A DNA stretch of 64,000 nucleotides from Ignavibacteria bacterium (GTDB lineage Bacteria; Bacteroidota; Ignavibacteria; Kapaibacteriales; UBA4661). The DNA lies in contig JAAFIV010000003.1 in NCBI GenBank assembly GCA_013298775.1, positions 141,460 through 205,459 of the forward strand, written 5' to 3'. Made by a program: the position numbers and the translations under genes. Every line of letters starts with the position of its first letter. The stretch's first letter is position 1. Below, in pieces: positions 5,044-57,313 of the stretch. Under the pieces are notes generated by a model, which was not told the DNA's origin, searched no databases, and saw only the letters and a program-made list of their open reading frames with translations.

Positions 5044-5063
5044 ATAATTGTTTTACTCAAGGT

Positions 5064-5175
5064 CTTCCCGTCGGGCGGCTGAGGAGTGCAGATACGATGC
5101 CGTCCGGCGGGTTGGCGGCTTGTACAAAACCCGCCGGACGGCTACTGCACTTGTGATAACAGCCGCTTGGGCGGG
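5064..5175. repeat. Family-1 composite palindromic element (~112 bp), orientation B
   Basis: Outer inverted repeat CCCGTCGGGCGGCTG/CAGCCGC(TTG)GGCGGGG, inner inverted repeat GCCGTCCGGCGGG/CCCGCCGGACGGC and a GCTTGTACA loop. Seven full copies plus one half copy occur in the window. Confidence 0.85.
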
Positions 5176-5228
5176 GCGGTATCTGAACTCATTTGCTCGA
5201 AAAATTTCCTTTTTCAATCCACACCACC

Positions 5229-5939: not shown

Positions 5940-5983
5940 TACGGTTATGGATGCAGTACCGTAGTTAATACCGTAGCGTCGTG

Positions 5984-6053
5984 CGGCGCAGACAGGAGTG
6001 TCCGCGCTACTGATGAATACTGGCTTCGGTAGAACAGACACTCTTGTCTGTTC
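5984..6053. repeat. Family-3 paired-hairpin repeat (GCGCAGACAGGAGTGTCYGCGC ... GGCTTCGGTA GAACAGACACTCTTGTCTGTTC). Other copies at 24513-24583, 54182-54266 (circularly permuted), 10484-10535 (partial, intragenic) and 46713-46745 (partial).
   Basis: Shared CAGACA-N4-TGTCTG hairpins and a GGCTTCGGTA/TACC linker were read directly at all loci. Confidence 0.8.
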
Positions 6054-6194
6054 ATAAACTATAATTCTACACACATCCGCCAAAGCATTTGCGATAGCAC
6101 TTGCAAGAAAGCGCGAAGGCAGTTATTTTGAGGTGCGCAGAATACACACAATCACCGCACCTTCACGACGTGAAGAATATTATCGAACAAATCT

Positions 6195-7190: not shown

Positions 7191-7200
7191 ATTATTTGTA

Positions 7201-7246
7201 CCCGTCGGGCGGCTGTTATCACAAGCACAGTAGCCGTCCGGCGGGT
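7201..7246. repeat. Half copy of the family-1 element (left arm only)
   Basis: CCCGTCGGGCGGCTGTTATCACAAGCACAGTAGCCGTCCGGCGGG is present without the right arm. It sits between the gcvH stop and the histidine kinase stop. Confidence 0.8.
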
Positions 7247-7258
7247 TTTCCTCGCGAA

Positions 7259-8293
7259 TCACAACAACGGCACTTTCACGCAAAATACTTCATTCACCTC
7301 CGCAATCACCACAGGACGCTCGTCCAAATAGCTGTACAACTGCACCACGCGCTGCAATCCCTGCCGATTCGACTCCTCGACCATTGTTTTTCGCTGCACA
7401 TTATTTGCTACCGATAAATAGCCATTTCCGTCGAAAATCCTGATATGAAGCGATTTCTGCGCTGAGGCGATATTGTGTTTTACCGCATTTTCAATAAGAA
7501 TTTGCAGCGTAACAGGCGCAATTTTTTTTGTCAATATCTCCTCGTTTACTTCAAAATCTACCTTCAAACCCTCTTGAAACCTAGTCTCCAGCAAATGCAC
7601 ATATCGCTTGACGAAGGTGAGTTCTGTTTCAAGCGAAACAAGTTCATTATTGGCTTGCAGCACGTAGCGATAGACTTTGGAAAGCTGTTGTAAAAAATCA
7701 CTGGCAAGCTGCGGATTCTCAAAAATAAGGCTGTTCAGCGAAGTGAGACTATTGAACAGAAAGTGAGGATTGAACTGGTTTTTGAGGTTGTCGAACTGCA
7801 CTTCGGCGCGTTCTTTTTGGAGGCGTTCATTGCGCAGAAGTTCAGCTTTCCATTTATCAAAAAAATCTTTTCCAAAGAGCGAGAGATTGATAGAAAAAGT
7901 CAATAAAAAACCTGTGAGCGTTGCCGCAACCATGAAGGGTTTGGTGAGCATGGGAAGGCGCAAAACGAGCGGAATATATTCGCCATAAAACCACCAGGAA
8001 ACAACAGCAATACAGGCAAAAAAGACCCACCCAATGAGTACCTGCGCGGCAATTCGGCGTACCACACGCATATCCGATGAAAAGAGGCGAATATCGTAGG
8101 GGAGAAGTTCATTCAATGTATTGTGCAACCACACAAAACCTTCCAACAATGCTGGTCCGAACACAAACGCTGCGCAAAATGAGAAAATATGCAGGTTTAT
8201 GCCCAATTCAGGAAACACATACGCCCGCACCGACGCACCAATGAGGTTCGCGGTAATCACAATCGGGTAGGCTTTTTTGCGATTGATAGTCAT
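7259..8293 (-). CDS. LytS/YehU-family sensor histidine kinase (membrane sensor plus His_kinase/HATPase)
   Basis: Multi-TM N-terminus. A FLFNSLTSLNSLI...LSKVYRYVLQ block (PF06580-type His kinase region) is followed by an ATPase domain. Confidence 0.7.
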   Translation of the reverse strand: MTINRKKAYPIVITANLIGASVRAYVFPELGINLHIFSFCAAFVFGPALLEGFVWLHNTLNELLPYDIRLFSSDMRVVRRIAAQVLIGWVFFACIAVVSWWFYGEYIPLVLRLPMLTKPFMVAATLTGFLLTFSINLSLFGKDFFDKWKAELLRNERLQKERAEVQFDNLKNQFNPHFLFNSLTSLNSLIFENPQLASDFLQQLSKVYRYVLQANNELVSLETELTFVKRYVHLLETRFQEGLKVDFEVNEEILTKKIAPVTLQILIENAVKHNIASAQKSLHIRIFDGNGYLSVANNVQRKTMVEESNRQGLQRVVQLYSYLDERPVVIAEVNEVFCVKVPLL

Positions 8294-9706: not shown

Positions 9707-11026
9707 TTACGGAGATTTTTTTTTCAACGCAAGCAATACTGCGGCACTGACAAGCGTAAGAATACTTGCAACAATCATCACTTCCTGCGCTTCTTCACGG
9801 ATGGAAAAAGGAGAATATTGCCACAACGCAAGATGTTGTGCGATTCCCCACAACGAAAGCACCGACCATACAGCAATAAACGCCAGCAAAAGCTCATCAA
9901 TACTGCGTTGCAAAACATGAGAAATGGAAAATCTGGCTGAAATAATCAGTACGGCAAAACACAGCAACACCGTACCAATACTTGCTCCCAGCACAACACT
10001 CGCAGGAAGAATGGTGAGTGCTACATATGCTGGATAGGCGTACCACGCAGGTCTGTCGGCGGGCGTGTGCAAGGGTGCTTGCGTGAGGTCGGCGGGAAGA
10101 GTTGGCGCGAGGCTTGTTGCGTAGCCCGCCCAGCACACACACACGCACACAAGAATACAAGCAATGATGGTGTGTTCAAGACTTTTGAACGTAACGTATT
10201 GATTGTTTTTTCGCGCTCGTATTGCCCAGACGCAAGCAACGGTCAGGCTTGGGAGTACAATAAAATGCAGCGTCGTCATTTTGAGAAGCGTTGAAGTGCC
10301 GAGTGCGCTTCCGCCGCGCAGTATTCCTGAAAGAGCATTGCCCAGTAGTGGTGCGGATTGCAGCGTGGAAAGCGCAATTTCCAATGCTGCGAACGAGCGC
10401 GTATCGAAGGGCAGAATATAGCCTGTGATGCCGCTTCCCAGCACGCACGCTGCGCCGAGGACAGTGAGCGCGGTCGTTTCTGTGGCGCAGACAAGAGTGT
10501 CTGCGCTACCTCTTTGTATTGGCTTCGAGGCGAGGAAACGCATTGTACACGCGCACAACGCCGCCAGCAACACCGATGCAACAAGGATATTCGCCGCCGC
10601 TTGGTGAATGCCGCGTACAAGCCAGCCATACTCTGCACCGCGCATGATTCCTTGCTCTACCGAGAAATACGCTGCATTCGGCAGTAATACTTGTTTGCTG
10701 CTCAGATGAGTAACGATGCGGCTTGCCGAGCGAAGTGTGTCGAGTGGAAGTATTGGCGCACGTGCAGCAGTGTCGTATTCCACAAAAAGCAGTTCCGATG
10801 CGGTGTATGTGGTTTTTGTTGGTGCGTGGCGGAGCGTTTTTGTTATTTCTAGCATCACCATACTCTGTCCCGACGCGCTTTCGGCGGGACGCGCCGAAGG
10901 CTCATACTGCGTCATCAGCAGTATTCCCGTGAGGCATTGCAACACAAAACTTTGTATGCTGAGAGCAAAGCTGAATCTCGCGCCGCGAGCAATGATGCGT
11001 TGAAGAGTGTGATTGGTCGTATTCAC
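9707..11026 (-). CDS. Cytochrome b (b/b6 family) membrane protein with a GTG start. It carries an in-frame family-3 repeat insertion.
   Basis: LQCLTGILLMTQY...YGWLVRGIHQAAANILV and LLKMTTLHFIVLP match the two heme-ligand His-containing helices of cytochrome b. It is standalone: no Rieske gene is adjacent. Confidence 0.6.
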   Translation of the reverse strand: MNTTNHTLQRIIARGARFSFALSIQSFVLQCLTGILLMTQYEPSARPAESASGQSMVMLEITKTLRHAPTKTTYTASELLFVEYDTAARAPILPLDTLRSASRIVTHLSSKQVLLPNAAYFSVEQGIMRGAEYGWLVRGIHQAAANILVASVLLAALCACTMRFLASKPIQRGSADTLVCATETTALTVLGAACVLGSGITGYILPFDTRSFAALEIALSTLQSAPLLGNALSGILRGGSALGTSTLLKMTTLHFIVLPSLTVACVWAIRARKNNQYVTFKSLEHTIIACILVCVCVCWAGYATSLAPTLPADLTQAPLHTPADRPAWYAYPAYVALTILPASVVLGASIGTVLLCFAVLIISARFSISHVLQRSIDELLLAFIAVWSVLSLWGIAQHLALWQYSPFSIREEAQEVMIVASILTLVSAAVLLALKKKSP

Positions 11027-11130
11027 CCGAGCGTGTGTTTGTGAGATTGAGGAAGAATGAATCTGTTAGCCGCGTCAAATATACAAAATATCCTCGTAGC
11101 CCAGTGATTACCGTGCATTCTTGCAAATTC

Positions 11131-11296
11131 GTAACTGGTCAGGTCTCCCCGTCGGGCGGCTGTTATCACAAGCGCAGTCGCCTTACGGCGGGTTCTTCGG
11201 CGCGTACTCAATAAAAGCGTCCTGTGTACACCCGCCGGACGGCTACTGTATCTGTAATAACAGCCGCCCGACGGGGGGAGTACCTGACCAGTTACG
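11131..11296. repeat. Family-1 element variant with a longer loop and outer inverted repeat GTAACTGGTCAGGT/ACCTGACCAGTTAC
   Basis: CCCGTCGGGCGGCTGTTATCACAAGCGCAG...CTGTAATAACAGCCGCCCGACGGGG is flanked by the outer inverted repeat. Confidence 0.8.
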
Positions 11297-11499
11297 CAAA
11301 TTCTTTGTAAATAATTATTCTCATCACATAATTTGTTGCATAATCTCCCACGATGCAATATCTTCGCCGCAGTTCAGGAGTGCATTTATTCAGAGTGTTT
11401 GCAAAAAAAATGTGCGACAAAAAGCTCTACAACAACGATAAAATCAAGTATTCAGTATTGTGTGTCTTTTCACAATTATTTTTCACAATTATCTAAAGG

Positions 11500-12237: not shown

Positions 12238-12247
12238 ATGTCAAATC

Positions 12248-12360
12248 TTCCCGCCCAAGCGGCTGAGGAGTGCAGGTACGGTGCCGTCCGGCGGGTGATT
12301 CCGTTTGTACAGCACTCGCCGGACGGCTACTGTGCGAGTGATAACAGCCGCCCGACGAGA
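12248..12360. repeat. Family-1 element, orientation B
   Basis: CCGCCCAAGCGGCTGAGGAGTGCAGGTACGGTGCCGTCCGGCGGG ... CTCGCCGGACGGCTACTGTGCGAGTGATAACAGCCGCCCGACGAG. Confidence 0.85.
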
Positions 12361-12425
12361 AAGACCAGCGACCAACTATAAAGCTCAAAAGCCTGATACA
12401 TACACGCTTTGAGCGTAAAAAATGC

Positions 12426-12712: not shown

Positions 12713-15700
12713 ATGAATTCTTCCGAATACTCTCCTTCCGAGCAAATCCCAAGCATCGCCGGAATGCCGCCAAAACAAGGCTTGTACGACCCCGCATTCG
12801 AGCGCGATGCCTGCGGTGTGGGCTTTGTGGCAAATATGAACGGCACTCCGTCGCGGGATATTGTTACCAAAGGCTTACAAATCCTGAAAAACCTGAAGCA
12901 TCGCGGCGCGACGGGCTGCGACCCGCATACAGGCGACGGTGCGGGCATTCTCATCCAGATACCGCATGAATTCTTCGTCCGCGTTTGCCGAGAGCCGCAA
13001 AACCTGATTGATGGCGGCTTCGAGCTTCCAGAGAACGGAAAATACGGCGTTGGAATGATGTTTTTGCCGAGCATCGTTGAAGAGCGAAAACGCTGCGTAA
13101 GCCTCATCACCTCTCGCTTGAAGGCGGAAGGTTTGACCGTGCTTGGTTGGCGGAATCCTCCCGTGAACGACCAAGTTGCGGGCGATGTGGCGCGTGCCTC
13201 GCAGCCTGCTATTCGCCAAGTGTTTGTTTCTGCGCCGCACTTGACGCAGGAACAGCTTGAAATCAAGCTCTACGTGGCGCGGCAGATGATGTCGAAAGAA
13301 ATTGTGCGTTTGGGTTTGGAGCAGGGAAATTATTTCTACGTGCCGAGTTTTTCCACGCGCACCATTTGCTACAAGGGCTTGCTGCAGCCCGAACAGATGG
13401 ATTCCTACTTCATTGACCTGAAAGCAAACGATTTTATTTCCGCGCTCGCCCTTGTGCATCAGCGTTTTAGCACCAATACCTTCCCCACGTGGGGTTTGGC
13501 GCACCCCTTCCGCTATTTGGCGCACAATGGCGAAATCAACACGCTGCGCGGCAACGTAAACTGGATGCGGGCGCGAGAAGCAATGCTGGAATCGCCCTTA
13601 TTTGGTGCGGATATTAAAAAAATTAAACCGATTATCACTGAAAGCGGTTCTGATTCGGCAATTCTCGACAACGCGCTTGAACTCTTGGTTCTGAGCGGTC
13701 GCTCCGTTCCCCACGCGCTGATGATGCTCGTGCCAGAAGCATGGGAAGCAAAAGCCGATATGAGCGAGGAATTACGCGCCTTCTACCAATATCACTCGAC
13801 GCTTTCCGAGCCGTGGGACGGTCCCGCCGCGCTGTCCTTCACCGACGGCACAATTATCGGCACTGCGCTCGACAGAAATGGTCTCCGACCCGCACGGTAT
13901 CTCGTTACGGAGGATGGCATTGTGGCACTGGCTTCGGAAGCGGGCGTGCTGGATTTCCCGCCCGAAACGATTGTCCGCAAAGGGCGCGTCGAACCCGGAA
14001 GCATGATGGTTGCTGACCTCACGGCTGGTCGCATTTTGGAAAATGAGGAAATCAAACGCACCATTGCAACGCGGCAACCATACGCCGAGTATGTAAAATC
14101 GCACGTTATTCGCCTTGAGCATTTGCCAGAAGCCTCATCGGAACTGGCTTCGTTGCCAAATCTTGCTGACAAAGAAACGCTTGTCGAGCAACAACAAGCA
14201 TTCGGTTATTCTGACGAAGACCTGCGTGTCATTTTGCAACCAATGTCGCAAAATGGCGAAGAACCTGTCGGCTCAATGGGAACCGACACGCCGCTTGCGG
14301 TCTTGTCCGAGAAGCCGCAGCTCCTTTCAAATTACTTCAAACAACTTTTCGCGCAAGTAACGAATCCGCCTATTGACCCGCTTCGTGAGCGGTCGGTGAT
14401 GTCGTTGAAAATTTATACAGGACGGCGCGGCAAGTTTTTGAATGAAGAATTTGACCCGCTCCGCTGTGATTTGGAGCTGGATTCACCGATTTTGACCGAC
14501 GACGAATTAGCGAAAATCAAGGCTCTGGGCAGCAATGCCGAATCCCCCCTCAATCAGACCCTCACCCCAACCCTCTCCCACAGGGAGAGGGCTTCAGAAT
14601 CTTCACCCTCGCCCTCTGGGAGAGGGTCGCTCGAAGAGCGGGGTGAGGGAAAGGCGCGAGAAATCACCCACAACATGAGTTCCGCAACGCTTTCCACCTT
14701 GTTTCCCATTGCAAAAGGCGCGGAAGGCTTGGTAAAAGCTCTCACCAGCCTTTGCGAGCAGGCGGAAGCGGTGATTGAAGAAGGACACGCGCTGCTTATC
14801 CTCAGCGATAGAGGCGTAAACAAGACCATGGCTCCCATTCCCGCGCTCTTGGCGGTTTCGGCGGTGCATCATCATCTCATCAAAACGGGCAAGCGGACGC
14901 AAGTGGGCTTGGTGGTGGAATCGGGCGAGCCGCGTGAAGTCATGCACTTCGCGCTGCTGATTGGCTATGGCGCGAGCGCAATCAATCCGTATCTCGCTTT
15001 GGGAACAATCAAGCATTCCTTCGCAGCCGCAAATGCAGTGGCGACGGTGCATGGAGCGGAGTTGTCCGCGCTTGGCAGCATCAAGGCTTTGACCGAAAAT
15101 TACCGCAAAGCCATTGGCAAAGGTTTGCTGAAAATTATGAGCAAAATGGGGATTTCGACGCTCATGTCGTACCGAGGAGCGCAAATTTTCGAGGCAGTTG
15201 GACTCAGTTCGCAACTCATTGACAACTACTTCCCCCGGACCCCGTCTCGCTTGGAGGGCATTGACCTTCGCCACATCGTGCGCGACGTGGAAACCTTCCA
15301 CAAACACGCTTTCCCCGCAAAGCCAGTTCTGAAGGCGCGTTCAGGCGCGTCGCTGCGTCGGTCGGGCTTGTACCAATGGCAGCGCGATGGCGAGTTTCAT
15401 GCCTACAACCCCGCATCAATCCACAAACTTCAGCAAGCAACCGCGCAAAACGATTACGCCGCCTTCAAGGAATACTCTGCACTCGTGAACACGGTGCAAA
15501 AGAAAAACGCGATGCTGCGTGGGTTGTTGGAGTTCAAGAAGGCAGATTCTATCCCGCTTTCGGAGGTGGAACCTGTTGAAGAAATTATGAAACGCTTTGC
15601 AACCGGCGCGATGTCGTTTGGTTCTATCAGCAAAGAAGCGCATGAAACCTTGGCGGAAGCAATGAACGCGATTGGCGGCAAAAGCAACACGGGCGAAGGC

Positions 15701-17506
15701 GGCGAGGACGCAGAACGCTTCGGGACAAATCGCCGCTCGGCTATCAAGCAAGTAGCGTCGGGGCGTTTCGGGGTTACGTCGCATTATTTGGTGAATGCGG
15801 ATGAATTGCAAATCAAGGTGGCGCAAGGCGCGAAGCCAGGTGAAGGCGGACAACTGCCCGGACACAAGGTAGATGCGACGATTGCGCGGGTGCGCCATTC
15901 CGTGCCGGGCGTTACGCTGATTTCGCCGCCGCCGCACCACGACATTTACTCGATTGAAGACCTTGCGCAACTTATCTACGACCTCAAAAATGCGAACAGC
16001 AAAGCCGATATTTCCGTGAAACTCGTCTCGGAAGTAGGCGTGGGCGTAGTAGCGGCGGGCGTTGCGAAGGCTCATGCGGATATGATTTTGATTTCCGGCT
16101 ACGACGGCGGCACGGGCGCGTCGCCGATAAGTTCCACGCGGCACGCGGGTATTCCGTGGGAAATCGGCTTGGCAGAAACCCAGCAAACACTTGTGCTGAA
16201 CGACCTTCGCGGGCGTGTGCGTGTGCAGGTGGATGGTCAGTTAAAAACGGGGCGTGATGTCGTTGTTGCCGCGCTTTTGGGCGCAGAGGAATTTGGCTTC
16301 TCGACCGCGCCGTTAGTAGTTTCGGGCTGTATTTTGATGCGCAAATGCCACTTGAACACGTGTCCTGTCGGCATTGCCACGCAAAAGCCTGAACTCCGCG
16401 CAAAATATACGGGCAAGGCAGAACACATCATCAATTTCTTCCGTTTTATTGCCGAAGAAGTACGCGAATTGATGTCGGAACTCGGCTTCCGCACCATGAA
16501 CGAAATGATTGGTCGCTCAGATGCTCTCAAACCCGCATTAGACCTTGCCGGCAAGGCGGCAACGCTGGATTTATCAGCAATTTTGTACAACCCGGGCGTA
16601 CAATCAAACAAACTCGACCTCGCCCAGACACCGCTTCGTTGCGTTTCTGCACAGGAGCATGGCTTGGAGGACGCACTAGACCACGAGTTGATTGCGCTCT
16701 CTCGTCCCGCGCTCGAATCCAAGCGGTCGGTGTCGTTTGATATTCGTATTCGCAATGTTCACCGCACGGTCGGTACATTGCTTGGAAGCGAGATTTCACG
16801 ACGCTTTGGTGAAGAAGGCTTGCCAGAAAACACCATCAATGCCACGTTCACGGGAACGGCTGGGCAAAGTTTCGGCGCATTCGTCCCGAAGGGCGTAACG
16901 ATGCGGCTTGTGGGCGAAGGAAATGATTATGTTGGCAAAGGTTTGTCGGGCGGAACGATTATTGTTGTGCCAAACCCCGCAGCCCGCTTCAATGCTGAGG
17001 AAAACGTCATTGCGGGCAATACAATTCTCTACGGCGCGACGAGCGGAACGGCGTTCATTCGCGGGCAGGTTGGCGAACGCTTTGCGGTGCGCAATTCTGG
17101 CGCGACGGTCGTCGTAGAGGGCGTTGGCGACCACGCTTGCGAGTACATGACAGGCGGAACGGTGGTGGTGCTTGGAAAAACGGGACACAACTTTGCGGCG
17201 GGCATGAGCGGCGGCGTGGCATTCGTCTATGACCCGCATCGCGCCTTCCCTCTGCGCTGCAATCACGAAATGGTGGATGTTGTGAATGTGTTGGATGCCG
17301 AGCAGCAAGAACGCCTGCACAGCTTGATTTCACGCCACGTTGAGCAGACGGAGAGCGCGATTGGCAAGCGTATTTTGGAGTCGTGGAATACGGCGGTGCA
17401 AGACTTCGCGCTCGTCTTCCCGCACGAGTACCGCAAATACTTGCAGCGCACTCGCCCACAACCCGCACAAACACTGGTAGAATTGGGCAAAGAACTTGCG
17501 GTGTGA
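12713..17506 (+). CDS. gltB: Glutamate synthase large subunit
   Basis: N-terminal CGVGFVA (Ntn amidotransferase Cys), central and FMN domains and a C-terminal GXGXG beta-helix. 1597 aa, including a ~32-aa repeat-derived in-frame insertion at residues ~616-647. Confidence 0.95.
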   Translation: MNSSEYSPSEQIPSIAGMPPKQGLYDPAFERDACGVGFVANMNGTPSRDIVTKGLQILKNLKHRGATGCDPHTGDGAGILIQIPHEFFVRVCREPQNLIDGGFELPENGKYGVGMMFLPSIVEERKRCVSLITSRLKAEGLTVLGWRNPPVNDQVAGDVARASQPAIRQVFVSAPHLTQEQLEIKLYVARQMMSKEIVRLGLEQGNYFYVPSFSTRTICYKGLLQPEQMDSYFIDLKANDFISALALVHQRFSTNTFPTWGLAHPFRYLAHNGEINTLRGNVNWMRAREAMLESPLFGADIKKIKPIITESGSDSAILDNALELLVLSGRSVPHALMMLVPEAWEAKADMSEELRAFYQYHSTLSEPWDGPAALSFTDGTIIGTALDRNGLRPARYLVTEDGIVALASEAGVLDFPPETIVRKGRVEPGSMMVADLTAGRILENEEIKRTIATRQPYAEYVKSHVIRLEHLPEASSELASLPNLADKETLVEQQQAFGYSDEDLRVILQPMSQNGEEPVGSMGTDTPLAVLSEKPQLLSNYFKQLFAQVTNPPIDPLRERSVMSLKIYTGRRGKFLNEEFDPLRCDLELDSPILTDDELAKIKALGSNAESPLNQTLTPTLSHRERASESSPSPSGRGSLEERGEGKAREITHNMSSATLSTLFPIAKGAEGLVKALTSLCEQAEAVIEEGHALLILSDRGVNKTMAPIPALLAVSAVHHHLIKTGKRTQVGLVVESGEPREVMHFALLIGYGASAINPYLALGTIKHSFAAANAVATVHGAELSALGSIKALTENYRKAIGKGLLKIMSKMGISTLMSYRGAQIFEAVGLSSQLIDNYFPRTPSRLEGIDLRHIVRDVETFHKHAFPAKPVLKARSGASLRRSGLYQWQRDGEFHAYNPASIHKLQQATAQNDYAAFKEYSALVNTVQKKNAMLRGLLEFKKADSIPLSEVEPVEEIMKRFATGAMSFGSISKEAHETLAEAMNAIGGKSNTGEGGEDAERFGTNRRSAIKQVASGRFGVTSHYLVNADELQIKVAQGAKPGEGGQLPGHKVDATIARVRHSVPGVTLISPPPHHDIYSIEDLAQLIYDLKNANSKADISVKLVSEVGVGVVAAGVAKAHADMILISGYDGGTGASPISSTRHAGIPWEIGLAETQQTLVLNDLRGRVRVQVDGQLKTGRDVVVAALLGAEEFGFSTAPLVVSGCILMRKCHLNTCPVGIATQKPELRAKYTGKAEHIINFFRFIAEEVRELMSELGFRTMNEMIGRSDALKPALDLAGKAATLDLSAILYNPGVQSNKLDLAQTPLRCVSAQEHGLEDALDHELIALSRPALESKRSVSFDIRIRNVHRTVGTLLGSEISRRFGEEGLPENTINATFTGTAGQSFGAFVPKGVTMRLVGEGNDYVGKGLSGGTIIVVPNPAARFNAEENVIAGNTILYGATSGTAFIRGQVGERFAVRNSGATVVVEGVGDHACEYMTGGTVVVLGKTGHNFAAGMSGGVAFVYDPHRAFPLRCNHEMVDVVNVLDAEQQERLHSLISRHVEQTESAIGKRILESWNTAVQDFALVFPHEYRKYLQRTRPQPAQTLVELGKELAV
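14558..14653. repeat. Family-4 composite palindromic element (CCCTCACCCC...GGGAGAGGG...GGGTGAGGG) inserted in-frame inside gltB
   Basis: Near-identical to the reverse complement of the intergenic copy at 22104-22216. A partial copy lies at 61953-62005. Confidence 0.8.
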
Positions 17507-22103: not shown

Positions 22104-22216
22104 TTCCCTCACCCCGCTCTTGCGAGCGACCCTCTCCCAAAGGGCGAGGGTTTTCCAAAGGCTTATTTTCTGAAGCCCTCTCCCTTTGGGAGAGGGTTGG
22201 GTGAGGGAAATTTAGC
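22104..22216. repeat. Family-4 composite palindromic element, intergenic copy
   Basis: TTTCCCTCACCCC...CCCTCTCCCAAAGGGCGAGGG...CCCTCTCCCTTTGGGAGAGGGTTGGGTGAGGGAAA. Confidence 0.8.
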
Positions 22217-24495: not shown

Positions 24496-24596
24496 ATATT
24501 TGCGCGTCTTGTGGCGCAGACAGGAGTGTTACGCGCTACCAGCAAGAACGGGCTTCGGTAGAACAGACACTCCTGTCTGTTCATTAGCACGAGTAT

Positions 24597-28612: not shown

Positions 28613-28638
28613 AACGGTTTCCTTGTAAAAAATTGAGG

Positions 28639-28782
28639 TAACTGCTCAGGTATCTTCTCGTCGGGCGGCTGTTATCACAAGTACAGTTGCCGTCCGGCGA
28701 GTGCTGCACAAGCGACTCACTCGCCGGACGGCAGCGTATCTGCACTCCTCAGCCGCCCGACGAGAGAATATCCGACCAGTTA
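28639..28782. repeat. Family-1 element, orientation A, with outer inverted repeat TAACTGCTCAGGTA / TATCCGACCAGTTAC
   Basis: CTCGTCGGGCGGCTGTTATCACAAGTACAGTTGCCGTCCGGCGAGTG-loop-CTCGCCGGACGGCAGCGTATCTGCACTCCTCAGCCGCCCGACGAG. Confidence 0.85.
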
Positions 28783-28885
28783 CAAATTGAGAATAATTTG
28801 AGTTTTCAGAGGCGAAAATTGTGTATCTATGAAGGAAGAAACACGAGCAGGAAAAAAGTCACAAAGCTCTGTGCAATGAAGTTTG

Positions 28886-29457: not shown

Positions 29458-31260
29458 ATGGCAAAAAAACGTTCACCCGCTCCCGCAACGACATCGGCTG
29501 CGCCTCGCGCCCCATTCGCATCTCGCTTTCTTTCCCGCTTTTCATGGTATCTTGTCCTCATGCCGCTTCTCACGCTGCTTTGGGGTTGGATATATTTTGA
29601 AAACGGTGAAATTATTGCGCTGAATAAAGGTTGTGGTTGGGACGGCGTAACCTACAAAAACGTTGTCTGGAGCTTGCAATGGAACAAAGCCCGCCCCGAT
29701 TACGCCGAGCGAAGCCGCTTGCGCATTGACCCCTACCGCGTACAGCGCATTGCACCAAGCGTGGCGGTGTATGGCGAGATGCAAGCCGCACGGTGGCTGT
29801 ATCAGCACGTAACGCCGATGTTTACTCGTGTTCCGGCGTGGTTGGAATGGAGCTACGAACAATATCCGCTTCCGCCGTGGTTTTTTCGGTGGTTTGCTGA
29901 TAATTCTATCAATTCAAACCAAGCGGCAAATGCCCAAAGCGTCGCACTGACGCTGGATAGCCTTGTTGCGGGATATTTCGTTTTTCACAGTTTGCTCATG
30001 CTGCTCGGAACGGCAGTGCTGTGGGCAATGACGGCGCGAAAGCTCAATCTTGGTGTAGCGGCGCGGTGGCTGGGCTTTTGCGGGCTTTTTGCGAATGTCG
30101 CCGTGATGAAAATGAGTTTGTATTATCCCACACTCACCGACACGACCGCGCTGTTTGTGGCAATGCTGATGCTGTATGCGTACATTGCCAACAGCGCGTG
30201 GTTGCTGCTTCCGGCGGCAGTGCTGGGCTTTTTTACCTTCCCGACGGCGATGTATGTTGCGGCGTTGCTGTTTCTCTTTCCGCGCAATATCGTTTTGCAC
30301 AATGAAGTAGCACCAGGAGAAGTAGCACCAGGAGAAGTAGCACAACCTGAAACACCAGCAATGACGGTCTTTGTACGAAATGTAAGCATTGGTGCGGTGG
30401 TGGTGGTATTGCTGGCAAGCGTGTATTTTGTGCTGATTGCAGAAGTGCGTTTTGTGGAGGTTGAGCCGCTTCAGCCGTTGTTGCTCATTCTCACGCTGCC
30501 CTTGCTCTGCGGGCAAGTATTCTTCACGGTTTCAAGGCTTGCAGCACAGTTTCCCGTGCAAGCGATAATGCGCCATTTCACGGAGCGCAAACATCTTGCT
30601 GGATACGCCCTGCGAGCCTTGATTTTGCTTGTTCTTTGGGCGGGATTGCTGTATTGGAAAAAGCAAATTGAAGACCCCACGCTTGCCGCGCCGATGAATA
30701 CAAGCCTATTTTTTGGTGGAAGTTTTGCCAGTGCGCTTGGAAAGCCCTTGTTGCCTGTGCTGGCGGGCGCGGTGTATTTTGGTCCAATTATTTTGGTGAT
30801 GATTCTTCGCTTTCGAGAATTTCTCAAAGCCGCATGGAATCTGGGTTTGGGCTATATGCTTGTGATAACGGCATTGCTGCTCATGGGAGCAATTATGTCG
30901 GAAACGCGGCAGCTTATCAATTTCTTGCCGTTTTTGGTGTTGGGTGTGGCGTACAGCCTTGATTCTGTCAGGCTTCCACGCATCGCGCTGGTGCTGTTCG
31001 CGCTTGTCGGCGTGATGGCAGCGAAAGTCTGGCTCCCGTTCAATTTTACAGGAATGGCGGAGCAAGCGGCAAACATCACAGGCGGCATCCATGCAACGTT
31101 TCCCTTGCAATACTACTTTATGAATCACGGACCATGGATGAGTTGGGCGAGTTATTTCCTGCAAGGAGCGTGTGCGCTTGTGGTGGCGGGGTTGCTGTGG
31201 TGGGTGCTGTCGCCGCAGTTTGCGGCGGAGTATGGGGAAAAGCAATCACAACAAAAATAA
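29458..31260 (+). CDS. Large polytopic membrane protein of unknown function with an internal (EVAPG)x3 tandem repeat
   Basis: More than 12 hydrophobic segments and a 15-bp coding tandem repeat at 30304-30348. The start position is uncertain (29407 or 29458). Confidence 0.5.
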   Translation: MAKKRSPAPATTSAAPRAPFASRFLSRFSWYLVLMPLLTLLWGWIYFENGEIIALNKGCGWDGVTYKNVVWSLQWNKARPDYAERSRLRIDPYRVQRIAPSVAVYGEMQAARWLYQHVTPMFTRVPAWLEWSYEQYPLPPWFFRWFADNSINSNQAANAQSVALTLDSLVAGYFVFHSLLMLLGTAVLWAMTARKLNLGVAARWLGFCGLFANVAVMKMSLYYPTLTDTTALFVAMLMLYAYIANSAWLLLPAAVLGFFTFPTAMYVAALLFLFPRNIVLHNEVAPGEVAPGEVAQPETPAMTVFVRNVSIGAVVVVLLASVYFVLIAEVRFVEVEPLQPLLLILTLPLLCGQVFFTVSRLAAQFPVQAIMRHFTERKHLAGYALRALILLVLWAGLLYWKKQIEDPTLAAPMNTSLFFGGSFASALGKPLLPVLAGAVYFGPIILVMILRFREFLKAAWNLGLGYMLVITALLLMGAIMSETRQLINFLPFLVLGVAYSLDSVRLPRIALVLFALVGVMAAKVWLPFNFTGMAEQAANITGGIHATFPLQYYFMNHGPWMSWASYFLQGACALVVAGLLWWVLSPQFAAEYGEKQSQQK

Positions 31261-31271
31261 TTCTCATCCCC

Positions 31272-31334
31272 CTGAAAGAAATTCCTCGCTCATGTGTCAT
31301 TCCTGAAATCCCGTGTTTACTCAATTCTTTTTCG
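31272..31334 (+). promoter_or_regulatory. Conserved ~65-bp 5' leader shared with the third beta-barrel paralog (36047-36108)
   Basis: CTGAAAGAAATTCCTCGCTCATGTGTCATTCCTGAAATCCCGTGTTTACTCAATTC is near-identical at both loci, directly upstream of paralogous genes. Confidence 0.6.
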
Positions 31335-31341
31335 ATACAAT

Positions 31342-32004
31342 ATGCGTTTGTTTCTCTTGTTCTTCGCGATAGCAATCGTGCTACCAGCAAGTACCTACGC
31401 CGCTTTTGGCGAAGGCACCGACAGCACCAAAACTGATTCCAATCAAGTACGAATGTACCAATACATAGGCGCAAGTGCCATGCTCACAACGGGACATCGC
31501 ACACTCGGCATCCCGCCAGAGTTTGCTGCACAGTTCGGAGATGCGCCGCTTGTGAGTTTTGGCTTGCATGGCGTGTGGCTAGGAGATTTGCTCTTCAAAA
31601 CCAACAAACTCCGCACCTCTTACGGCATTGAGAAAATCCTGAACGCTTATCCTTCGCCGCGTATCTTGGAAAATATTCGTTTTGCTGTTCAGTTTGGCTA
31701 CTACGTTTTTGAGCAGGAAATGACGCAGAAAGGGCTGAAAGCCTATCCTTTTCTTGGTTTTTCCTCAAGCATTTACTACGTCGATAATGGTGTTCGCCTG
31801 AGTGTTGCTTCTGTGGAAGGCGGCGCAGGTGTGGACTGGTTTGTCCCCCAGACACCGCTTCTCGTCGGCATTCAAGCCTCGTACAATCATAGTTGGAATC
31901 TTCGCGCGGCGCAGAATGTGGCGAATAATGTGGGTGGCGTTTGTGTGAAAGCGCAGGTTTCTATTTTTATTCGGGAGAAGAAGAATCCTTTGGGATGGGA
32001 CTGA
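31342..32004 (+). CDS. Outer-membrane beta-barrel protein, paralog A of three
   Basis: Signal peptide ending ASTYAAFG, alternating beta-strand pattern and a C-terminal aromatic residue (GWD). About 60% identical to 35310-35990. Confidence 0.55.
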   Translation: MRLFLLFFAIAIVLPASTYAAFGEGTDSTKTDSNQVRMYQYIGASAMLTTGHRTLGIPPEFAAQFGDAPLVSFGLHGVWLGDLLFKTNKLRTSYGIEKILNAYPSPRILENIRFAVQFGYYVFEQEMTQKGLKAYPFLGFSSSIYYVDNGVRLSVASVEGGAGVDWFVPQTPLLVGIQASYNHSWNLRAAQNVANNVGGVCVKAQVSIFIREKKNPLGWD

Positions 32005-35309: not shown

Positions 35310-35990
35310 ATGTCTTACCATTTCTCCCTCCGTTGTTTGGTTTTCCTATCCATTGTATTTCTTACTACACCGAGTATATACGCTGCTTTGGGCGAAGGCA
35401 CAGATAGCACCAAAACTGACTCTACACAACTGCGAATGTATCAATACTTGGGCGCAAGCTCTATGCTCACAAGCGGACACCGCACACTTGGCATCCCTCC
35501 GGAATTTGCTACGCAGTTCGGTGATGCACCGCTTGTGAGTGTTGGTTTTTATGGCGTGTGGGTAGGAGATTTACTCTTTAAAACTAGTAAACTCCGCACG
35601 GCTGCTAGCTTTGAGAAGATACTTAATGCTTATCCGTCATCGCGCATATTTGAAAACTGGCGTTTTATGGCACAGTTTGGCTACTATGTCGCTGAACAAG
35701 AGAGTAATAAACCTAAAGGACTGAAAGCCTATCCTTTCCTTGGGTATAGCTGGAATTTATACTACATAGACAATAGTGTTCGTATGAGCATTCTTTCTGT
35801 GGACGGCGGGGCGGGCGCTGACTGGTTTATCCCCCAAACCCCAGTGCTGGTCGGCGTTCAAGCCTCCTACAATCACAGTTGGAATCTTAGTGCTGCAAAG
35901 GAAGTAGTAAATAATGTAAGTGGTTTGTCTATTAAAGCACACATCGCAATTTTTATTTTTGAGAAAAAAAATCCTTTCGGCTGGAACTAA
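35310..35990 (+). CDS. Outer-membrane beta-barrel protein, paralog B
   Basis: Collinear with paralog A (GEGTDSTKTDS...RMYQY...HRTLGIPPEF...NHSWNL...GWN). Confidence 0.55.
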   Translation: MSYHFSLRCLVFLSIVFLTTPSIYAALGEGTDSTKTDSTQLRMYQYLGASSMLTSGHRTLGIPPEFATQFGDAPLVSVGFYGVWVGDLLFKTSKLRTAASFEKILNAYPSSRIFENWRFMAQFGYYVAEQESNKPKGLKAYPFLGYSWNLYYIDNSVRMSILSVDGGAGADWFIPQTPVLVGVQASYNHSWNLSAAKEVVNNVSGLSIKAHIAIFIFEKKNPFGWN

Positions 35991-36046
35991 GGAAAGACAA
36001 ACATCAAACGGCTCGTTTTGAAAAAATGACATCTACCTGAAAGAAA

Positions 36047-36108
36047 TTCCTCGCTCATGTGTCATTCCAGAAATCCCGTTTTTACTCAATTCCTTTTGAA
36101 AAAATATG
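36047..36108 (+). promoter_or_regulatory. Second copy of the conserved 5' leader (see 31272-31334)
   Basis: Near-identical to the leader of paralog A. Confidence 0.6.
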
Positions 36109-36816
36109 CGCTTGCTTCTTTATTTCTGGATAATAGCAATCGTGCTACCATCAAACATTTACGCGCTCGGCATGGAGAGCGATAGCACACAAACTCGCAT
36201 GGGTAGCGTGTACGCGGGTATTACCCCAGCAAATACGGCAACCGCCGACAGCCTCCGTGCAGATTCAGCAAAGGTGCGGATGCGGCAATACGTTGGAGCC
36301 GCCTCGACGCTTACTACCAATCACCGCTCGCTTGGTCTTCCAGCAGAATACGCTGCACAGTACGGAAATATGCCGCTTTCCAGCGTTGGCATCAATTTTA
36401 TTGCTATCGGCAATTTCCTTTTCCAAACCAATCGTTTGCGTTCTTCCGTCACATTTGAACGCTTTGTGAATGTCTATCCCTCGAACAAAATACTGGAAAA
36501 TTTTCGAGAATGTCTTCAAATCGGCTACTACGTCTATGAGCGAGATGCTATCAAGCTGTATCCATTCATTGGCGGCACGGTGGGATTGTACTACATAGAT
36601 AATGGCATTCGATTGGGTGTGTTTGCAGCAGAAGCAGGTGCGGGGCTTGATTACTTCATTCCCAAGACCTCGCTGCTTGCTGGACTACAAGTTTCCTACA
36701 ATCATACGTGGAATATTCGGTCTGCGGCGGATGCTGTCGGTAATATCGGCGGTGTGGCAGTGCGGGCGCACGTTTCCATCCTCTTTAGCGAGCGCACCAC
36801 GTGGTGGGGCTGGTAA
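36106..36816 (+). CDS. Outer-membrane beta-barrel protein, paralog C (more divergent)
   Basis: Same domain order with a longer N-terminal Thr/Ala-rich segment. It ends WWGW. Confidence 0.55.
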   Translation: MRLLLYFWIIAIVLPSNIYALGMESDSTQTRMGSVYAGITPANTATADSLRADSAKVRMRQYVGAASTLTTNHRSLGLPAEYAAQYGNMPLSSVGINFIAIGNFLFQTNRLRSSVTFERFVNVYPSNKILENFRECLQIGYYVYERDAIKLYPFIGGTVGLYYIDNGIRLGVFAAEAGAGLDYFIPKTSLLAGLQVSYNHTWNIRSAADAVGNIGGVAVRAHVSILFSERTTWWGW

Positions 36817-36828
36817 AATCTTACTCCT

Positions 36829-36935
36829 CCCGCCCAAGCGGCTGTTATCACAAGCACAGTAGCCGTCCGGCGGGTGCTGTGCAAGCGACCACCCGCCGGA
36901 CGGCAGCGTTCATGCACTCCTCAGCCGCCCGACGG
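36829..36935. repeat. Family-1 element, orientation A
   Basis: CCCGCCCAAGCGGCTGTTATCACAAGCACAGTAGCCGTCCGGCGGGTG-CTGTGCAAGCGACCA-CCCGCCGGACGGCAGCGTTCATGCACTCCTCAGCCGCCCGACGGG. Confidence 0.85.
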
Positions 36936-36970
36936 GAAGAACTGAACATTCAACAATCATTCAAACACCT

Positions 36971-40568: not shown

Positions 40569-41342
40569 ATGCTGAAATTCACATTGCCCACACACAAGAT
40601 TCTGTCAAGTGTTGAGGCTTTTTTTGTTGTCTATTGCGGATGCTGTTTGTTCCTGCTGGAAACCGCACCAGTGCTTGCGCAGTGGAGTCCCAATTCTCCT
40701 CGCGCTGAGCGTGCCTACGACGCACATTTGCAAGGCTACAATGCGCTTTTCCCTGCCGAACATGGCGCGTACTATATGCTTCCAATGGGTATTGCTTCTG
40801 GTGGCATGAGCGATGCGTTTGGGAGCAATCCTGCATATTTTTTTTCGGGTTTACCACGACAATGGTTCTTGCAAAGCACGATGATTCATTACGACCGTGT
40901 TATCATTGAAACCTTTCAAACAAGCGGTATTCTGCGCCTTGATTCGGCAGACACGGAAATAGCTACCTTCGGCAATACGCTTGGTTTCGGCTACATCGTT
41001 TTTGATACCACGCTCTCGCAAACAACCAAACTCAATCTCTTTCCTTTCCTCAGCACTGGCGTTCTGACGAGCCGCTTTTTTCAGCCGCGCATCACCTTCA
41101 GCGCGAGCCTGAGTGCGCTTTATACGATTGATATTTCTCAGCGTACTGCAATGCGGCGCAATGTAGGATTTGCTGTGCCAATTCGCATAGATATTGGCTA
41201 CACACGGCATTATACCGCCGTGCAGTCTGGCTTGGAAGATATTGGTGACGGTGGAGGCGTGTTTTTGCGCGTGAGCGTGGGCATAGGACCGCATTATTCG
41301 GCGGTTGTAGCGGGGACATACGACACGGTTGTACAGGAATAA
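40569..41342 (+). CDS. Hypothetical secreted or outer-membrane protein
   Basis: Signal-peptide-like N-terminus (MLKF... CGCCLFLLETAPVLAQ). No recognised family. Confidence 0.35.
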   Translation: MLKFTLPTHKILSSVEAFFVVYCGCCLFLLETAPVLAQWSPNSPRAERAYDAHLQGYNALFPAEHGAYYMLPMGIASGGMSDAFGSNPAYFFSGLPRQWFLQSTMIHYDRVIIETFQTSGILRLDSADTEIATFGNTLGFGYIVFDTTLSQTTKLNLFPFLSTGVLTSRFFQPRITFSASLSALYTIDISQRTAMRRNVGFAVPIRIDIGYTRHYTAVQSGLEDIGDGGGVFLRVSVGIGPHYSAVVAGTYDTVVQE

Positions 41343-41400
41343 TTGGAATAATTGGAATAATTAGAATAATTGGAATAATTAGAATAATTAGAATAATTCC
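41337..41400. repeat. Tandem 9-bp repeat (GAATAATTR) x7
   Basis: ggaataattggaataattggaataattagaataattggaataattagaataattagaataattcc. Confidence 0.85.
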
Positions 41401-41416
41401 TTTCAATCACAAACAA

Positions 41417-46654: not shown

Positions 46655-46712
46655 GAATGGTCAGAGTTTGTTATGATTTCAGTTGATAATTCTGTGGGTG
46701 ATGTGTTGGGAG

Positions 46713-46780
46713 GAACAGACAAGAGTGTCTGTTCTACCGAAGCCAAGTATTTGTCTGCTATTTGTCTGCTATTTGTCTGC
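46713..46780. repeat. Partial family-3 hairpin (GAACAGACAAGAGTGTCTGTTC TACCGAAGCC) followed by an 11-bp tandem repeat (TATTTGTCTGC) x3, upstream of nusA
   Basis: Direct reading. Confidence 0.75.
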
Positions 46781-51570: not shown

Positions 51571-52257
51571 ATGGAAACCTCTTCACTCTCGCCAAAGCAA
51601 GGATTTACGCGCCATGCAGCTCTTTTGCTCATGGTAGCTTGTGCCGCACTCACGATGCAGTCCTGCTCGCGCAGTGAAGAAGCGCGGAATGCTTCGCAAG
51701 GCTCATCAAATCAAGAAACACAGGCTGCTGGAATGGGCATGGAAAATGCGATGGACGAGAAATCGAAATCCGCAGCAGCAACGGCAAAAGTCTTCGCGCT
51801 GCAAAAAGTAGATACACCGCAAAACGGCAAACGTGCTGATTTTGCATGGCTGGAAGGCAAAAAGACCGTCAAACTTTCGGAAGTATCGTCGGGCAAGCCA
51901 GTCTTTATCAACTTCTGGGCAACGTGGTGTCCGCCGTGCCGCCGCGAATTGCCAGATATTGTGGAATTGCAAAAAGAATACGGCACGAAAGTTGTATTTA
52001 TTGGCGTTGCCTTTGAGAACGAATCGAAAGCCTCAAAAGCCGCACCACTTGTGAGTTCATTCGCACAAAAAAATAATCTTGGCTACGTTAATATCGTTGG
52101 CGATGAGGAATTAGTCGGGAAAATTTCTGCTGCCTATGGCAATGTGGAAGCCCTTCCCACAACCTTTGTGATTGACAAAAACGGCGTGGTGCTGGAAAAG
52201 CTCGTCGGCGGACGCTCGAAAGAAGACTTTCTCGCGGCATTGAAGAAAGTGTTGTAA
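51571..52257 (+). CDS. TlpA-like thiol:disulfide oxidoreductase lipoprotein (thioredoxin fold)
   Basis: WATWCPPCRRELP active site and a lipoprotein-like signal (LTMQSC). Confidence 0.75.
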   Translation: METSSLSPKQGFTRHAALLLMVACAALTMQSCSRSEEARNASQGSSNQETQAAGMGMENAMDEKSKSAAATAKVFALQKVDTPQNGKRADFAWLEGKKTVKLSEVSSGKPVFINFWATWCPPCRRELPDIVELQKEYGTKVVFIGVAFENESKASKAAPLVSSFAQKNNLGYVNIVGDEELVGKISAAYGNVEALPTTFVIDKNGVVLEKLVGGRSKEDFLAALKKVL

Positions 52258-52288
52258 CTATTCAGGTCTCAGGCAATTTCACTCATTT

Positions 52289-52393
52289 GCCCCCTTGATA
52301 AAGGGGGAACGGGGGATTTGCTCATGTGAAACGAGTGATTTGAAGCGGTGTTGAACCACAATAATCCCCCGTTCCCCCTTTATCAAGGGGGCG
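52289..52393. repeat. Family-5 inverted pair (GCCCCCTTGATAAAGGGGGAACGGGGGATT ... AATCCCCCGTTCCCCCTTTATCAAGGGGGC). Second copy at 62016-62117.
   Basis: Direct reading at both loci. Confidence 0.8.
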
Positions 52394-52643
52394 AATGCGA
52401 CAACATTTCTGTTGCGTACCTGAAATAGTTGTAAAAAAGCGTTGTAACCTGCCTTATTTCCACGCTTTAAACCTTCCTTGCTTGTATGCTCTCTTACAGG
52501 AAGTTCGCTGATGAAGAACTTGTGAAAAAGTTATGCAAAGACTTTGAAAAGGTTTTGAAAAGCGCATGAGAAAGTGTATCTTTTCGCAAAACTGATGAAA
52601 AAAATTATTACTTACATTATATCACAGAATTGAAGGACATGGC

Positions 52644-54089: not shown

Positions 54090-54181
54090 AATTCGTTCTA
54101 AATAAAGGAGAAAAAAGATGGGAAAACGTTCAGAGAAACTGTATTTTTGCGGACGAAAATTTTTGCTGTCGCACATTCTTT

Positions 54182-54266
54182 GGCTTCGGTAGCACAGACA
54201 CTCCTATCTGTGCAAGCTGGCGAATAGTGCGTCAAATCTGCGCAGACAGGAGTGTCTGCGCTACCT
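54182..54266. repeat. Family-3 element, circularly permuted order (GGCTTCGGTA-hairpin2 ... hairpin1-TACC)
   Basis: ggcttcggtagcacagacactcctatctgtgc ... gcgcagacaggagtgtctgcgctacc. Confidence 0.75.
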
Positions 54267-54376
54267 ACTTGACAGAGTTTGCTCATACGCCATCCACATA
54301 AAAATACTGAAATTTCCCAACAAACCTCGTTGTTCTGCGAGATTTGTTCCATTTTTATCGTTTTTTCTTCTTAATT

Positions 54377-55417: not shown

Positions 55418-55443
55418 CAACTCAGCTTTCACGCTTATTTCAA

Positions 55444-55502
55444 CTTTCCAAGTTGCGGATGTGCTTACGAACAAGCATTCATCGGGCTTGGAAAGTTTTT
55501 TT
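55444..55502 (+). terminator. Terminator hairpin (CTTTCCAAG ... CTTGGAAAG followed by TTTTTTTAT) after acpP
   Basis: Direct reading. Confidence 0.55.
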
Positions 55503-55514
55503 ATGGTAGTTCCT

Positions 55515-55624
55515 CTCGCCCCGGGCGGCTGAAGAGTGCAAGCACAGTGCCGTCCGGCGAGTGGGTCGCTTGTAAAACACCCGACGGACGGCTACTGCGC
55601 TTGTGATAACAGCCGCCCGACGGG
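55515..55624. repeat. Family-1 element, orientation B
   Basis: CGCCCCGGGCGGCTGAAGAGTGCAAGCACAGTGCCGTCCGGCGAGTGG-GTCGCTTGTAAAACA-CCCGACGGACGGCTACTGCGCTTGTGATAACAGCCGCCCGACGGG. Confidence 0.85.
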
Positions 55625-55654
55625 AAATACCTCATTAAAATTTGTCGCCAAACT

Positions 55655-57115: not shown

Positions 57116-57130
57116 TGTTTACTTGGTGAT

Positions 57131-57275
57131 AACTGGTCCGGTGTCTTCTCGTCGGGCGGCTGTTGTCACAAGAGCAATAGCCGTCCGGCGAGTGCTATGC
57201 AAGCGACCAACTCGCCGGACGGCAGCGTTTCTGCACTCCTCAGCCGCCCGATGAGAAGATAGCTGACCAGCTACA
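57131..57275. repeat. Family-1 element, orientation A, with outer inverted repeat AACTGGTCCGG / GCTGACCAGCT
   Basis: CTCGTCGGGCGGCTGTTGTCACAAGAGCAATAGCCGTCCGGCGAGTG-CTATGCAAGCGACCAA-CTCGCCGGACGGCAGCGTTTCTGCACTCCTCAGCCGCCCGATGAG. Confidence 0.85.
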
Positions 57276-57313
57276 ATTGGTGTTTAAAAGCGTTCGTCAT
57301 CGGCAATGAATTT

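Follow-up and report, generated by a model that had tools for sequence, protein, structure and literature searches.

Distribution of the repeat copies

The window is the whole 64-kb stretch of DNA which was analyzed, and the flanking genes in it encode T9SS sorting domains as well as receptors of the CarboxypepD_reg-TonB kind. One flanking hydrolase has its best named homologues in 'Candidatus Kapaibacteriota', and the host is a Kapabacterium (Bacteroidota); an enterobacterial origin, which the G+C content might suggest, is contradicted by these domains and homologues. An intergenic palindromic repeat, here called family 1, is interspersed between the genes as seven full copies and one half copy. 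All eight had been listed in a sequence-only reading of the window, and no further ones were obtained by repeat finding, by alignment of the eight sequences or by nhmmer (--max) with a profile made from the family-1 copies, which matched these eight sites alone in the 64 kb. Arm A of the repeat (TTATCACAAGCACAGTAG, up to 3 mismatches) has 7 sites in the window against a chance expectation of 0.06, and arm B has 4 against 0.00. The copies, with their terminal inverted repeats (TIRs) and target-site duplications (TSDs), are as follows.

5054..5187, minus strand: copy 5064, full, decayed TIRs, CCCGCCCAAGCGGCTG at the A end, without TSD
7192..7263, plus strand: half copy 7201, a solo A half (outer stem, arm A and inner stem) followed by TTTT
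11131..11295, plus strand: copy 11131, full, A/A' homodimer with a longer linker and a perfect 14-bp TIR GTAACTGGTCAGGT; TSD GCAAATTC at 11123-11130 and 11296-11303
12238..12366, minus strand: copy 12248, full, hybrid, variant terminus, without TSD
28638-28783, plus strand: focal copy, full, refined extent
36819..36949, plus strand: copy 36829, full, variant left terminus, without TSD
~55505..55640, minus strand: copy 55515, full, hybrid of half types, shortened TIR remnants, without TSD
57129..57274, plus strand: copy 57131, full, TIR ATAACTGGTCCGGT / GTAGCTGGTCAGCT; TSD matching at 7/8, ACTTGGTG at 57121-57128 and AATTGGTG at 57275-57282

All eight copies are intergenic and both orientations occur, as had been read from the sequence; the further statement that they lie mostly at gene 3' ends is to be qualified, as copy 11131 sits between divergent gene starts. 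Five of the eight (5064, 7201, 12248, 36829 and 57131) start 1-19 nt past a stop codon, copy 12248 being 1 nt past that of an esterase gene and copy 36829 3 nt past its own neighbour's, and two more lie ~90-110 nt past a stop codon. The half copy at 7192-7263 is placed between gcvH and a histidine-kinase gene, which converge. Relative to the upstream gene the copies alternate in orientation (-,+,-,+,-,+,-), hence there is no strand bias. The artefact ORF PDGYC(A/T)CDNSRP, noticed earlier, crosses the family-1 copies.

Copy 55515 adjoins the conserved acpP terminator, and its start is the exact end of homology to contigs L073, L075 and L077. This intrinsic terminator 3' of acpP (AACTTTCCAAG...CTTGGAAAGTTTTTTT) is conserved at 55418-55504 and in L073-L077, and the gene which follows it varies, being the hydrolase in the window, an MGDG-synthase-like gene in L073 and fabF in L074.

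A search for the element in related genomes had been proposed as a check. The scan of a genome collection with a 16-mer gave 72 rows, mostly chance matches, and one real match: contig RDXM01000125.1 (L010) of the MAG 'Ca. Kapaibacterium sp. PH2015_12D_48_15' bears a full copy with 90-92% identity to those of the window. Elements sharing the stems were also found in high-GC Bacteroidota contigs, as described below. Family 1 is absent from the relatives of ~82% nucleotide identity (L073-L077) and from L080-L082, contigs with hydrolase homologues at 85-91% amino-acid identity. Exact-protein look-ups of the hydrolase and GcvH for empty sites returned nothing, and the search for empty sites via AcpP, RbfA and hydrolase homologues gave no clean site, leading to ~82% relatives or short contigs with a different gene order.

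Structure of the element

The order of parts in family 1 is outer stem, 18-nt arm, inner stem, loop, inner stem', arm' and outer stem'. This modular layout, as claimed before, was seen in the alignment, with qualification for copies 11131 and 55515, and the loop is of 13-15 nt (34 nt in copy 11131). The parts of the focal copy are given below.

28630..28637, no strand: left TSD AAATTGAG, identical 8-mer on both flanks
28638..28651, plus strand: left TIR GTAACTGCTCAGGT, starts GTAAC, like the IS66-family ends measured here
28657..28671, plus strand: outer stem or box M1 CTCGTCGGGCGGCTG, contains CGTC
28672..28689, plus strand: arm A TTATCACAAGTACAGTTG, 18-nt spacer, mean pairwise identity 84%
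28690..28703, plus strand: inner stem or box M2 CCGTCCGGCGAGTG, direct repeat of M1
28704..28717, plus strand: central loop CTGCACAAGCGACT
28718..28731, plus strand: inner stem' CACTCGCCGGACGG, inverted M2
28732..28749, plus strand: arm B' CAGCGTATCTGCACTCCT, 18 nt, non-complementary to arm A, mean pairwise identity 83%
28750..28764, plus strand: outer stem' CAGCCGCCCGACGAG, inverted M1
28770..28783, minus strand: right TIR' ATCCGACCAGTTAC (reverse complement GTAACTGGTCGGAT)
28784..28791, no strand: right TSD AAATTGAG

A 5-nt spacer separates each TIR of the focal copy from the adjoining outer stem, and M1 pairs either with 28690-28703, with two G-T wobbles, or with 28750-28764. The stem pair can be written as the search pattern GTCGGGCGGCTG-N16-20-CCGTCCGGCG, and the box CCGTCSGGCGG occurs in the window nowhere outside the family-1 element.

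The additional outer inverted repeat which had been ascribed to several copies is present as AACTGGTCAGG/CCTGACCAGTT in three. A variant terminus, CCCGCCCAAGCGGCTG, stands at one end of four copies (5064, 36829, 12248 and L010), and the non-intact copies carry GGTATCTTCY remnants 5' of the outer stem, their termini being decayed or shortened and their flanks without duplication. The arms had been described as conserved across copies and non-complementary, which is to be qualified for two copies: copy 11131 is an A/A' homodimer with ~72% of arm positions complementary (82% for the arm-plus-stem repeat), and the B arm of copy 55515 is a hybrid which is in part complementary to A. Copies 12248, 55515 and L010 combine halves of unlike subtype (CTC/GAG vs CCC/GGG), and the match is always within a half; in copy 12248 the A half is of the CTC/GAG type and the B half of the CCC/GGG type. 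The general description of family 1 as a real, abundant, modular and intergenic palindrome, more than a plain hairpin, is supported by these data.

Termini and target-site duplications

TIRs of 13-14 bp delimit the three copies whose ends are intact, and the direct 8-mers adjoining them match at 8/8, 8/8 and 7/8 positions (GCAAATTC/GCAAATTC, AAATTGAG/AAATTGAG and ACTTGGTG/AATTGGTG). In a control with 200,000 random pairs of identical spacing, 8/8 was reached at a frequency of 3e-5 and at least 7/8 at 1e-3. The three flank 8-mers are unlike each other, so they are target duplications and not element sequence. The six ends of these copies read GTAAC (four times), ATAAC and GTAGC. TIRs together with a TSD are present in three of the eight window copies only; no TSD was found in the other five, which are read as decayed or recombinant. 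The copies bearing a TSD have halves of the same subtype and standard termini, and the hybrids 12248, 55515 and L010 are without TSD.

One more repeat in the window has TIRs like those of family 1, with an unrelated interior.

52254..52435, plus strand: family-3 repeat, TIR GTAACTATTCAGGT / ACCTGAAATAGTTGT

Its flanks agree at 4/8 with the simple boundary and at 7/8 only when the right boundary is shifted, and the element has no CCGTC box. The likeness of its TIRs to those of family 1 suggests that one transposase may move more than one payload. Family 3 as a whole (GCCCCCTTGATAAAGGGGGAACGGGGGAT and its inverted partner) was observed at 52254-52435 and 62019-62130, and a possible AAAGYGTT duplication is seen at the 52254 copy if the right boundary is moved by 3-4 nt.

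Comparison with IS66 elements

Ends starting with GTAA together with an 8-9-bp duplication are the signature of the IS66 family in the ISfinder family table. Plasmid elements were collected as IS66 references via tblastn with a TnpB sequence, and eight were fetched and their ends located. Five reference elements have perfect 8-bp TSDs and start with GTAAGC (four) or GTACGC (one). Nucleotides 19-23 are CCGTC at the left end or CCGTA at the right end in four of these five, and the fifth has GCCGCC. In family 1 the left end of copy 11131 carries the CCGTC box at nt 19-23, and the remaining ends carry it at nt 21-26, i.e. 2-3 nt deeper; the chance of a box at such a distance is roughly <0.01 by our own estimate. 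The likeness between the ends is short, consisting of GTAA and a 5-nt box at a similar distance. With the published IS66 ends GTAAGCGTCCGGCGAACTC and GTAACCGTCCGGGCA the inner stem GCCGTCCGGCGGG shares 9 and 8 consecutive nt respectively (PMC12888890), the 9-nt match to the inverted repeat of ISPsk01 being CGTCCGGCG; these matches are short. IS66 inverted repeats are reported to start with GTAAGCG and to be flanked by 8-bp direct repeats, and members of the family are reported to occur in Bacteroidetes/Chlorobi (PMC11946415). Judged from sequence, the likeness appears short but coherent, as it extends to the terminus, the box, the position of the box and the length of the duplication. A domain scan of 20 window ORFs revealed none of a transposase, and no IS66 or other transposase gene with matching ends (GTAACTGGTCAGG...CCGTC) was located in the 64-kb window and 8 kb of the related MAG.

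Family 1 is most likely a previously undescribed MITE family of a Kapabacterium, and it most probably derives from an IS66-type element. On balance we favour a non-autonomous MITE which is moved in trans by a DDE transposase generating 8-bp TSDs, most probably one of the IS66 family. The transposase would be encoded elsewhere in the genome and would act on an element of ~145-165 bp. Each end of this element presents the terminal repeat GTAACTGGTCAGGT, then the box CCGTCSGGCGG (outer stem) ~20 nt in and a second box copy (inner stem) ~32 nt deeper, with the right end mirroring the left. The boxes are putative transposase-binding sites, and the 18-nt arms may serve as spacers between them, constrained in length and free in sequence; arms A and B are probably derived from the parent IS, whose left and right subterminal regions would be unlike. 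The box being near-palindromic, the four boxes can pair as one long internal-loop hairpin or as two half-hairpins. Older copies would have lost their termini and duplications, and some would be recombinants between copies.

Family 1 agrees with IS66 insertion sequences and with MITEs formed from an IS by deletion in its GTAA(C/G) ends, its 8-bp duplication, the CCGTC box ~19-25 nt from the tip and the 8-9-nt match of the inner box. It differs from them in being without transposase genes, in its size of 146-165 bp, in having C and not G at nt 5 and in that no cognate IS was located, and also in the doubling of a quasi-palindromic box at each end, which allows folding into one or two long hairpins. 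As a kind of object it is ordinary mobile DNA, mildly unusual only in the twin-box, hairpin-capable architecture which is common to Bacteroidota classes.

Stems and arms in related elements

The conservation of the arms had been taken earlier as a sign of sequence-level selection, and the comparison speaks against this. Mean pairwise identity over the 7 heterodimer copies is 83-84% in the arms, which is the element-wide level, against 90-92% in the inner stems (the value of 79-82% for the outer stems is lowered by the variant terminus), and the arms of relatives are wholly different and complementary. These relatives were obtained by searching metagenomes for the two stem motifs separated by any spacer of 16-20 nt, which gave 16 contigs with genuine matches (G+C 58-64%, one at 51%). 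The tryptophanase beside at least one of their elements is 73-74% identical to that of Chitinophaga and Spirosoma, which places at least that contig in Bacteroidota. The high-GC relatives share both the outer and the inner stem, even at positions which the search pattern left unspecified; the arms of 18-20 nt are G-rich (GGGGAGGCGGTGCGGGG) and unrelated, those of the two halves being complementary to each other, and the loops differ too. Since the relatives keep the stems with the arms replaced, the arms are length-constrained spacers and not conserved sequence, and arm conservation within the window is due to common descent of the copies. A version of the earlier protein-binding-site idea holds up for the conserved stem motif, not for the arms. 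Arm B is similar to the arm of the high-GC relatives (GGAG..TGC), and as the B arm of copy 55515 is an A/B hybrid, the two arms are homologues which have diverged. In the high-GC relatives neither an outer TIR nor a TSD was definable.

Solo halves occur at 7192-7263 and in L085, L088, L092, L093, L097, L100 and L108, and L089 holds a tandem cluster in which the element was duplicated together with ~55 nt of flank. A sequence common downstream of the L085 and L093 half-copies was considered as an IS end and rejected, as it is an orthologous lipoprotein gene. The parallel-complement likeness of arms A and B (TTATCAC / AGGAGTG), for which no mechanism is known, was treated as a coincidence. No matches were obtained by the metagenome scan with an arm-A pattern, by the protein search with the concatenated artefact ORFs for miscalled copies or by plasmid BLAST with either the Kapabacterial or the high-GC element, and the scan of viral contigs gave only a chance match inside a phage gene.

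Two features were observed beside these elements in the high-GC contigs. A perfect palindrome with a ~23-bp stem (GCGTGAAAAGCCGCTGTTTACCC...GGGTAAACAGCGGCTTTTCACGC) adjoins the solo half at L085:1370-1425, and the flanks at L089:2900-3300, L105:60-226 and L095:1430-1490 carry the reiterated motifs TTCGGAAATGGA and ATCCGAAC/GTCCGAAAC.

Folding of half units and alternative explanations

Within one half, the outer and the inner stem directly repeat the near-palindromic CCGTCSGGCGG and can therefore also pair with each other (one strand then has two G-T wobbles). The solo half folds as DNA at -15.3 kcal/mol (z = -5.2) and its complement at -12.0 kcal/mol (z = -2.8). Over 37 halves 86.5% of cells are paired, and one pair covaries (CG 29, UA 6, GC 1), a stem position which fits real base pairing as well. 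The wobble T of CGTC is kept in both boxes (31/37 and 36/37 halves), and as CGTC is kept despite the cost of the wobble, sequence recognition of the box is favoured over stem stability alone.

Mobilisation of REP type by a Y1-HUH transposase, suggested in the earlier reading, would make the halves REP-like imperfect palindromes read as ssDNA by a RAYT, e.g. of Bacteroidetes subclass 2.6, and the full element an inverted heterodimer. The folding of the solo half on its own, with wobbles on one strand only, and the pairing over the 37 halves accord with it, and so does the covariation in 12248, 55515 and L010, which is inside halves and not between them. The units were found singly, as heterodimers, as a homodimer and in a tandem cluster (L089), which is typical of REP/BIME, and a canonical GTAG REP family is also present in the window's genome. 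REP heterodimers and REP dimers within outer palindromes have been described (PMC3733652), as have Bacteroidetes RAYTs with atypical REPs ('atypical secondary structures') (PMC6006769). The subtype match within halves fits half-unit pairing, as in REPs, and equally recombination between copies at the loop; recombination is favoured, because the hybrids are without TSD and copy 55515 starts where homology to L073, L075 and L077 ends. All three intact copies, however, have TIRs and 8-bp TSDs, and to our knowledge RAYT and IS200/IS605 chemistry makes neither. Moreover, GTAG is confined to arm A, being found neither in arm B nor in the high-GC relatives. Described REPs do not resemble an element whose stems measure 13-15 bp and whose loops span 17-20 nt, the table of manually identified REPs in the RAYT paper does not include the family-1 motif, and a scan of 339 kb for the RAYT motif HUH...Y(I/V)xxNP gave nothing. 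A literature search with four stem motifs (12-13 nt) found none in a relevant paper, with two chance matches, one each in unrelated human and HSV papers. We consider RAYT mobilisation of family 1 improbable.

The canonical REP family is a second family of the window, whose units combine a GT(A/G)G foot with an 8-bp stem (AACAGACA) closed by a 5-nt loop and often form inverted, REPIN-like doublets. It was observed at 2649-2757, 5976-6055, 10475-10516, 24504-24584, 46703-46744, 54163-54271 and 62277-62373, and beyond the window at L010:6632-6700 and in L074, L076 and L082, so being common to the ~82%-identity relatives which are without family 1. This GTAG-footed family suggests that a RAYT is present in the Kapabacterial lineage.

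A bolder view, to which we give only a small chance, is that the four-fold CCGTCSGGCGG array represents a Bacteroidota-wide miniature class standing between MITEs and REP/BIME, in which repetition of the IS66-type end box has produced twin quasi-palindromic hairpins. Elements of this class could be recognised as folded ssDNA, or the host could have recruited them to structure its genome or to protect RNA 3' ends, and the mismatched arms might result from selection against long perfect palindromes. If the twin-hairpin architecture is truly functional, it would usefully connect the biology of MITEs with that of REPs.

A structured RNA had also been proposed, and a host-selected transcription element (3' stabiliser, terminator or regulatory hairpin) with a functional internal loop is quite unlikely in our judgement. 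The fold is very stable (-50 to -53 kcal/mol as DNA, z ~ -10), the start of five of the eight copies 1-19 nt past a stop codon agrees with such a role, and TTTT follows the solo half as well as the A half in copy 5064. Against this, orientation relative to the upstream gene is mixed and without bias, one copy lies between divergent gene starts, and acpP has its own conserved terminator 5' of copy 55515. There is no consistent T tail, and the sole family-1 match of the terminator scan, whose totals were near the shuffle level, is a trivial 5-bp stem at 12285-12297 inside copy 12248. Rfam gave no match at the gathering score for the window or at E <= 1 for the focal copy, and the arms forming the internal loop are not conserved between lineages.

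An array of dsDNA sites for a host protein, comparable to BIMEs with IHF or gyrase and built of four quasi-palindromic CCGTCSGGCGG units at ~32-bp spacing, would suit a near-palindromic box conserved together with the length but not the sequence of its spacer; such an array is nevertheless very unlikely, as it leaves the TIRs and TSDs unexplained, the box is nowhere in the window outside the element and hence no independent regulon is visible, and no candidate host protein is known.

Relation to known repeats and significance

Family 1 may be set beside other repeat systems. Correia/NEMIS of Neisseria, ERIC and YPAL are, as family 1, intergenic, reach high copy numbers and measure 100-170 bp, with TIRs and a strong potential to form hairpins, and they differ from it in their termini and target duplications and are unrelated in sequence; we know of none described from Kapabacteria. 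The BIMEs and REPINs of Proteobacteria (PMC3733652) resemble it as inverted pairs of imperfect palindromes in which two unit types produce mismatched regions, occurring as singletons and clusters, intergenic and mostly after genes, with some families inside an outer palindrome. Family 1 departs from them in its TIRs and 8-bp TSDs, its much longer stems and loops, the lack of a conserved GT[AG]G foot and the absence of a RAYT motif from the 339 kb scanned. The CGTC-tagged REPs of Chlorobi, Bacteroidetes and others share with it CGTC, head-to-head dimers and the lack of a known dedicated transposase; in them CGTC is an unpaired end tag on a stem of 8-9 bp which opens with A-T pairs, their loop has 4-5 nt and their tail is CCA (PMC3733652), whereas family 1 has its CGTC inside G+C-rich stems (13-15 bp) and its loops span 17-20 nt.

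The provided data are the first description of repeat content in a Kapabacteria genome. At ~1 copy per 8 kb the family may reach several hundred copies per genome. The data would tie it to IS66-type transposition, and they reveal related elements with the same end box in distant Bacteroidota. Such elements break short-read assemblies, spawn spurious ORFs and mark rearrangement breakpoints, as with copy 55515 at a synteny break.

Other repeats in the window

A further palindromic repeat (CCCTCACCCC..ACCCTCTCCCACAGGGAGAGGG..GGGGTGAGGG) was observed at 14555-14650, 22105-22210 and ~61960-62000. Its copy at 14555-14650 lies in frame within the 1597-aa ORF 12713-17506, where it is translated as ...TLTPTLSHRERASESSPSPSGRGSLEERGEGK...; by its size and neighbouring genes this ORF looks like a putative glutamate synthase, and the repeat may be a tolerated intragenic insertion. 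In the gap upstream of rbfA, at 41328-41408, a tandem array holds ~9 copies of the 9-mer GAATAATTG/A. A block of low G+C (41% at 32-36 kb) contains three paralogous genes of ~226-236 aa (31256-32004, 35310-35990 and 36021-36816), the upstream regions of which are also duplicated, with 74-88% identity.
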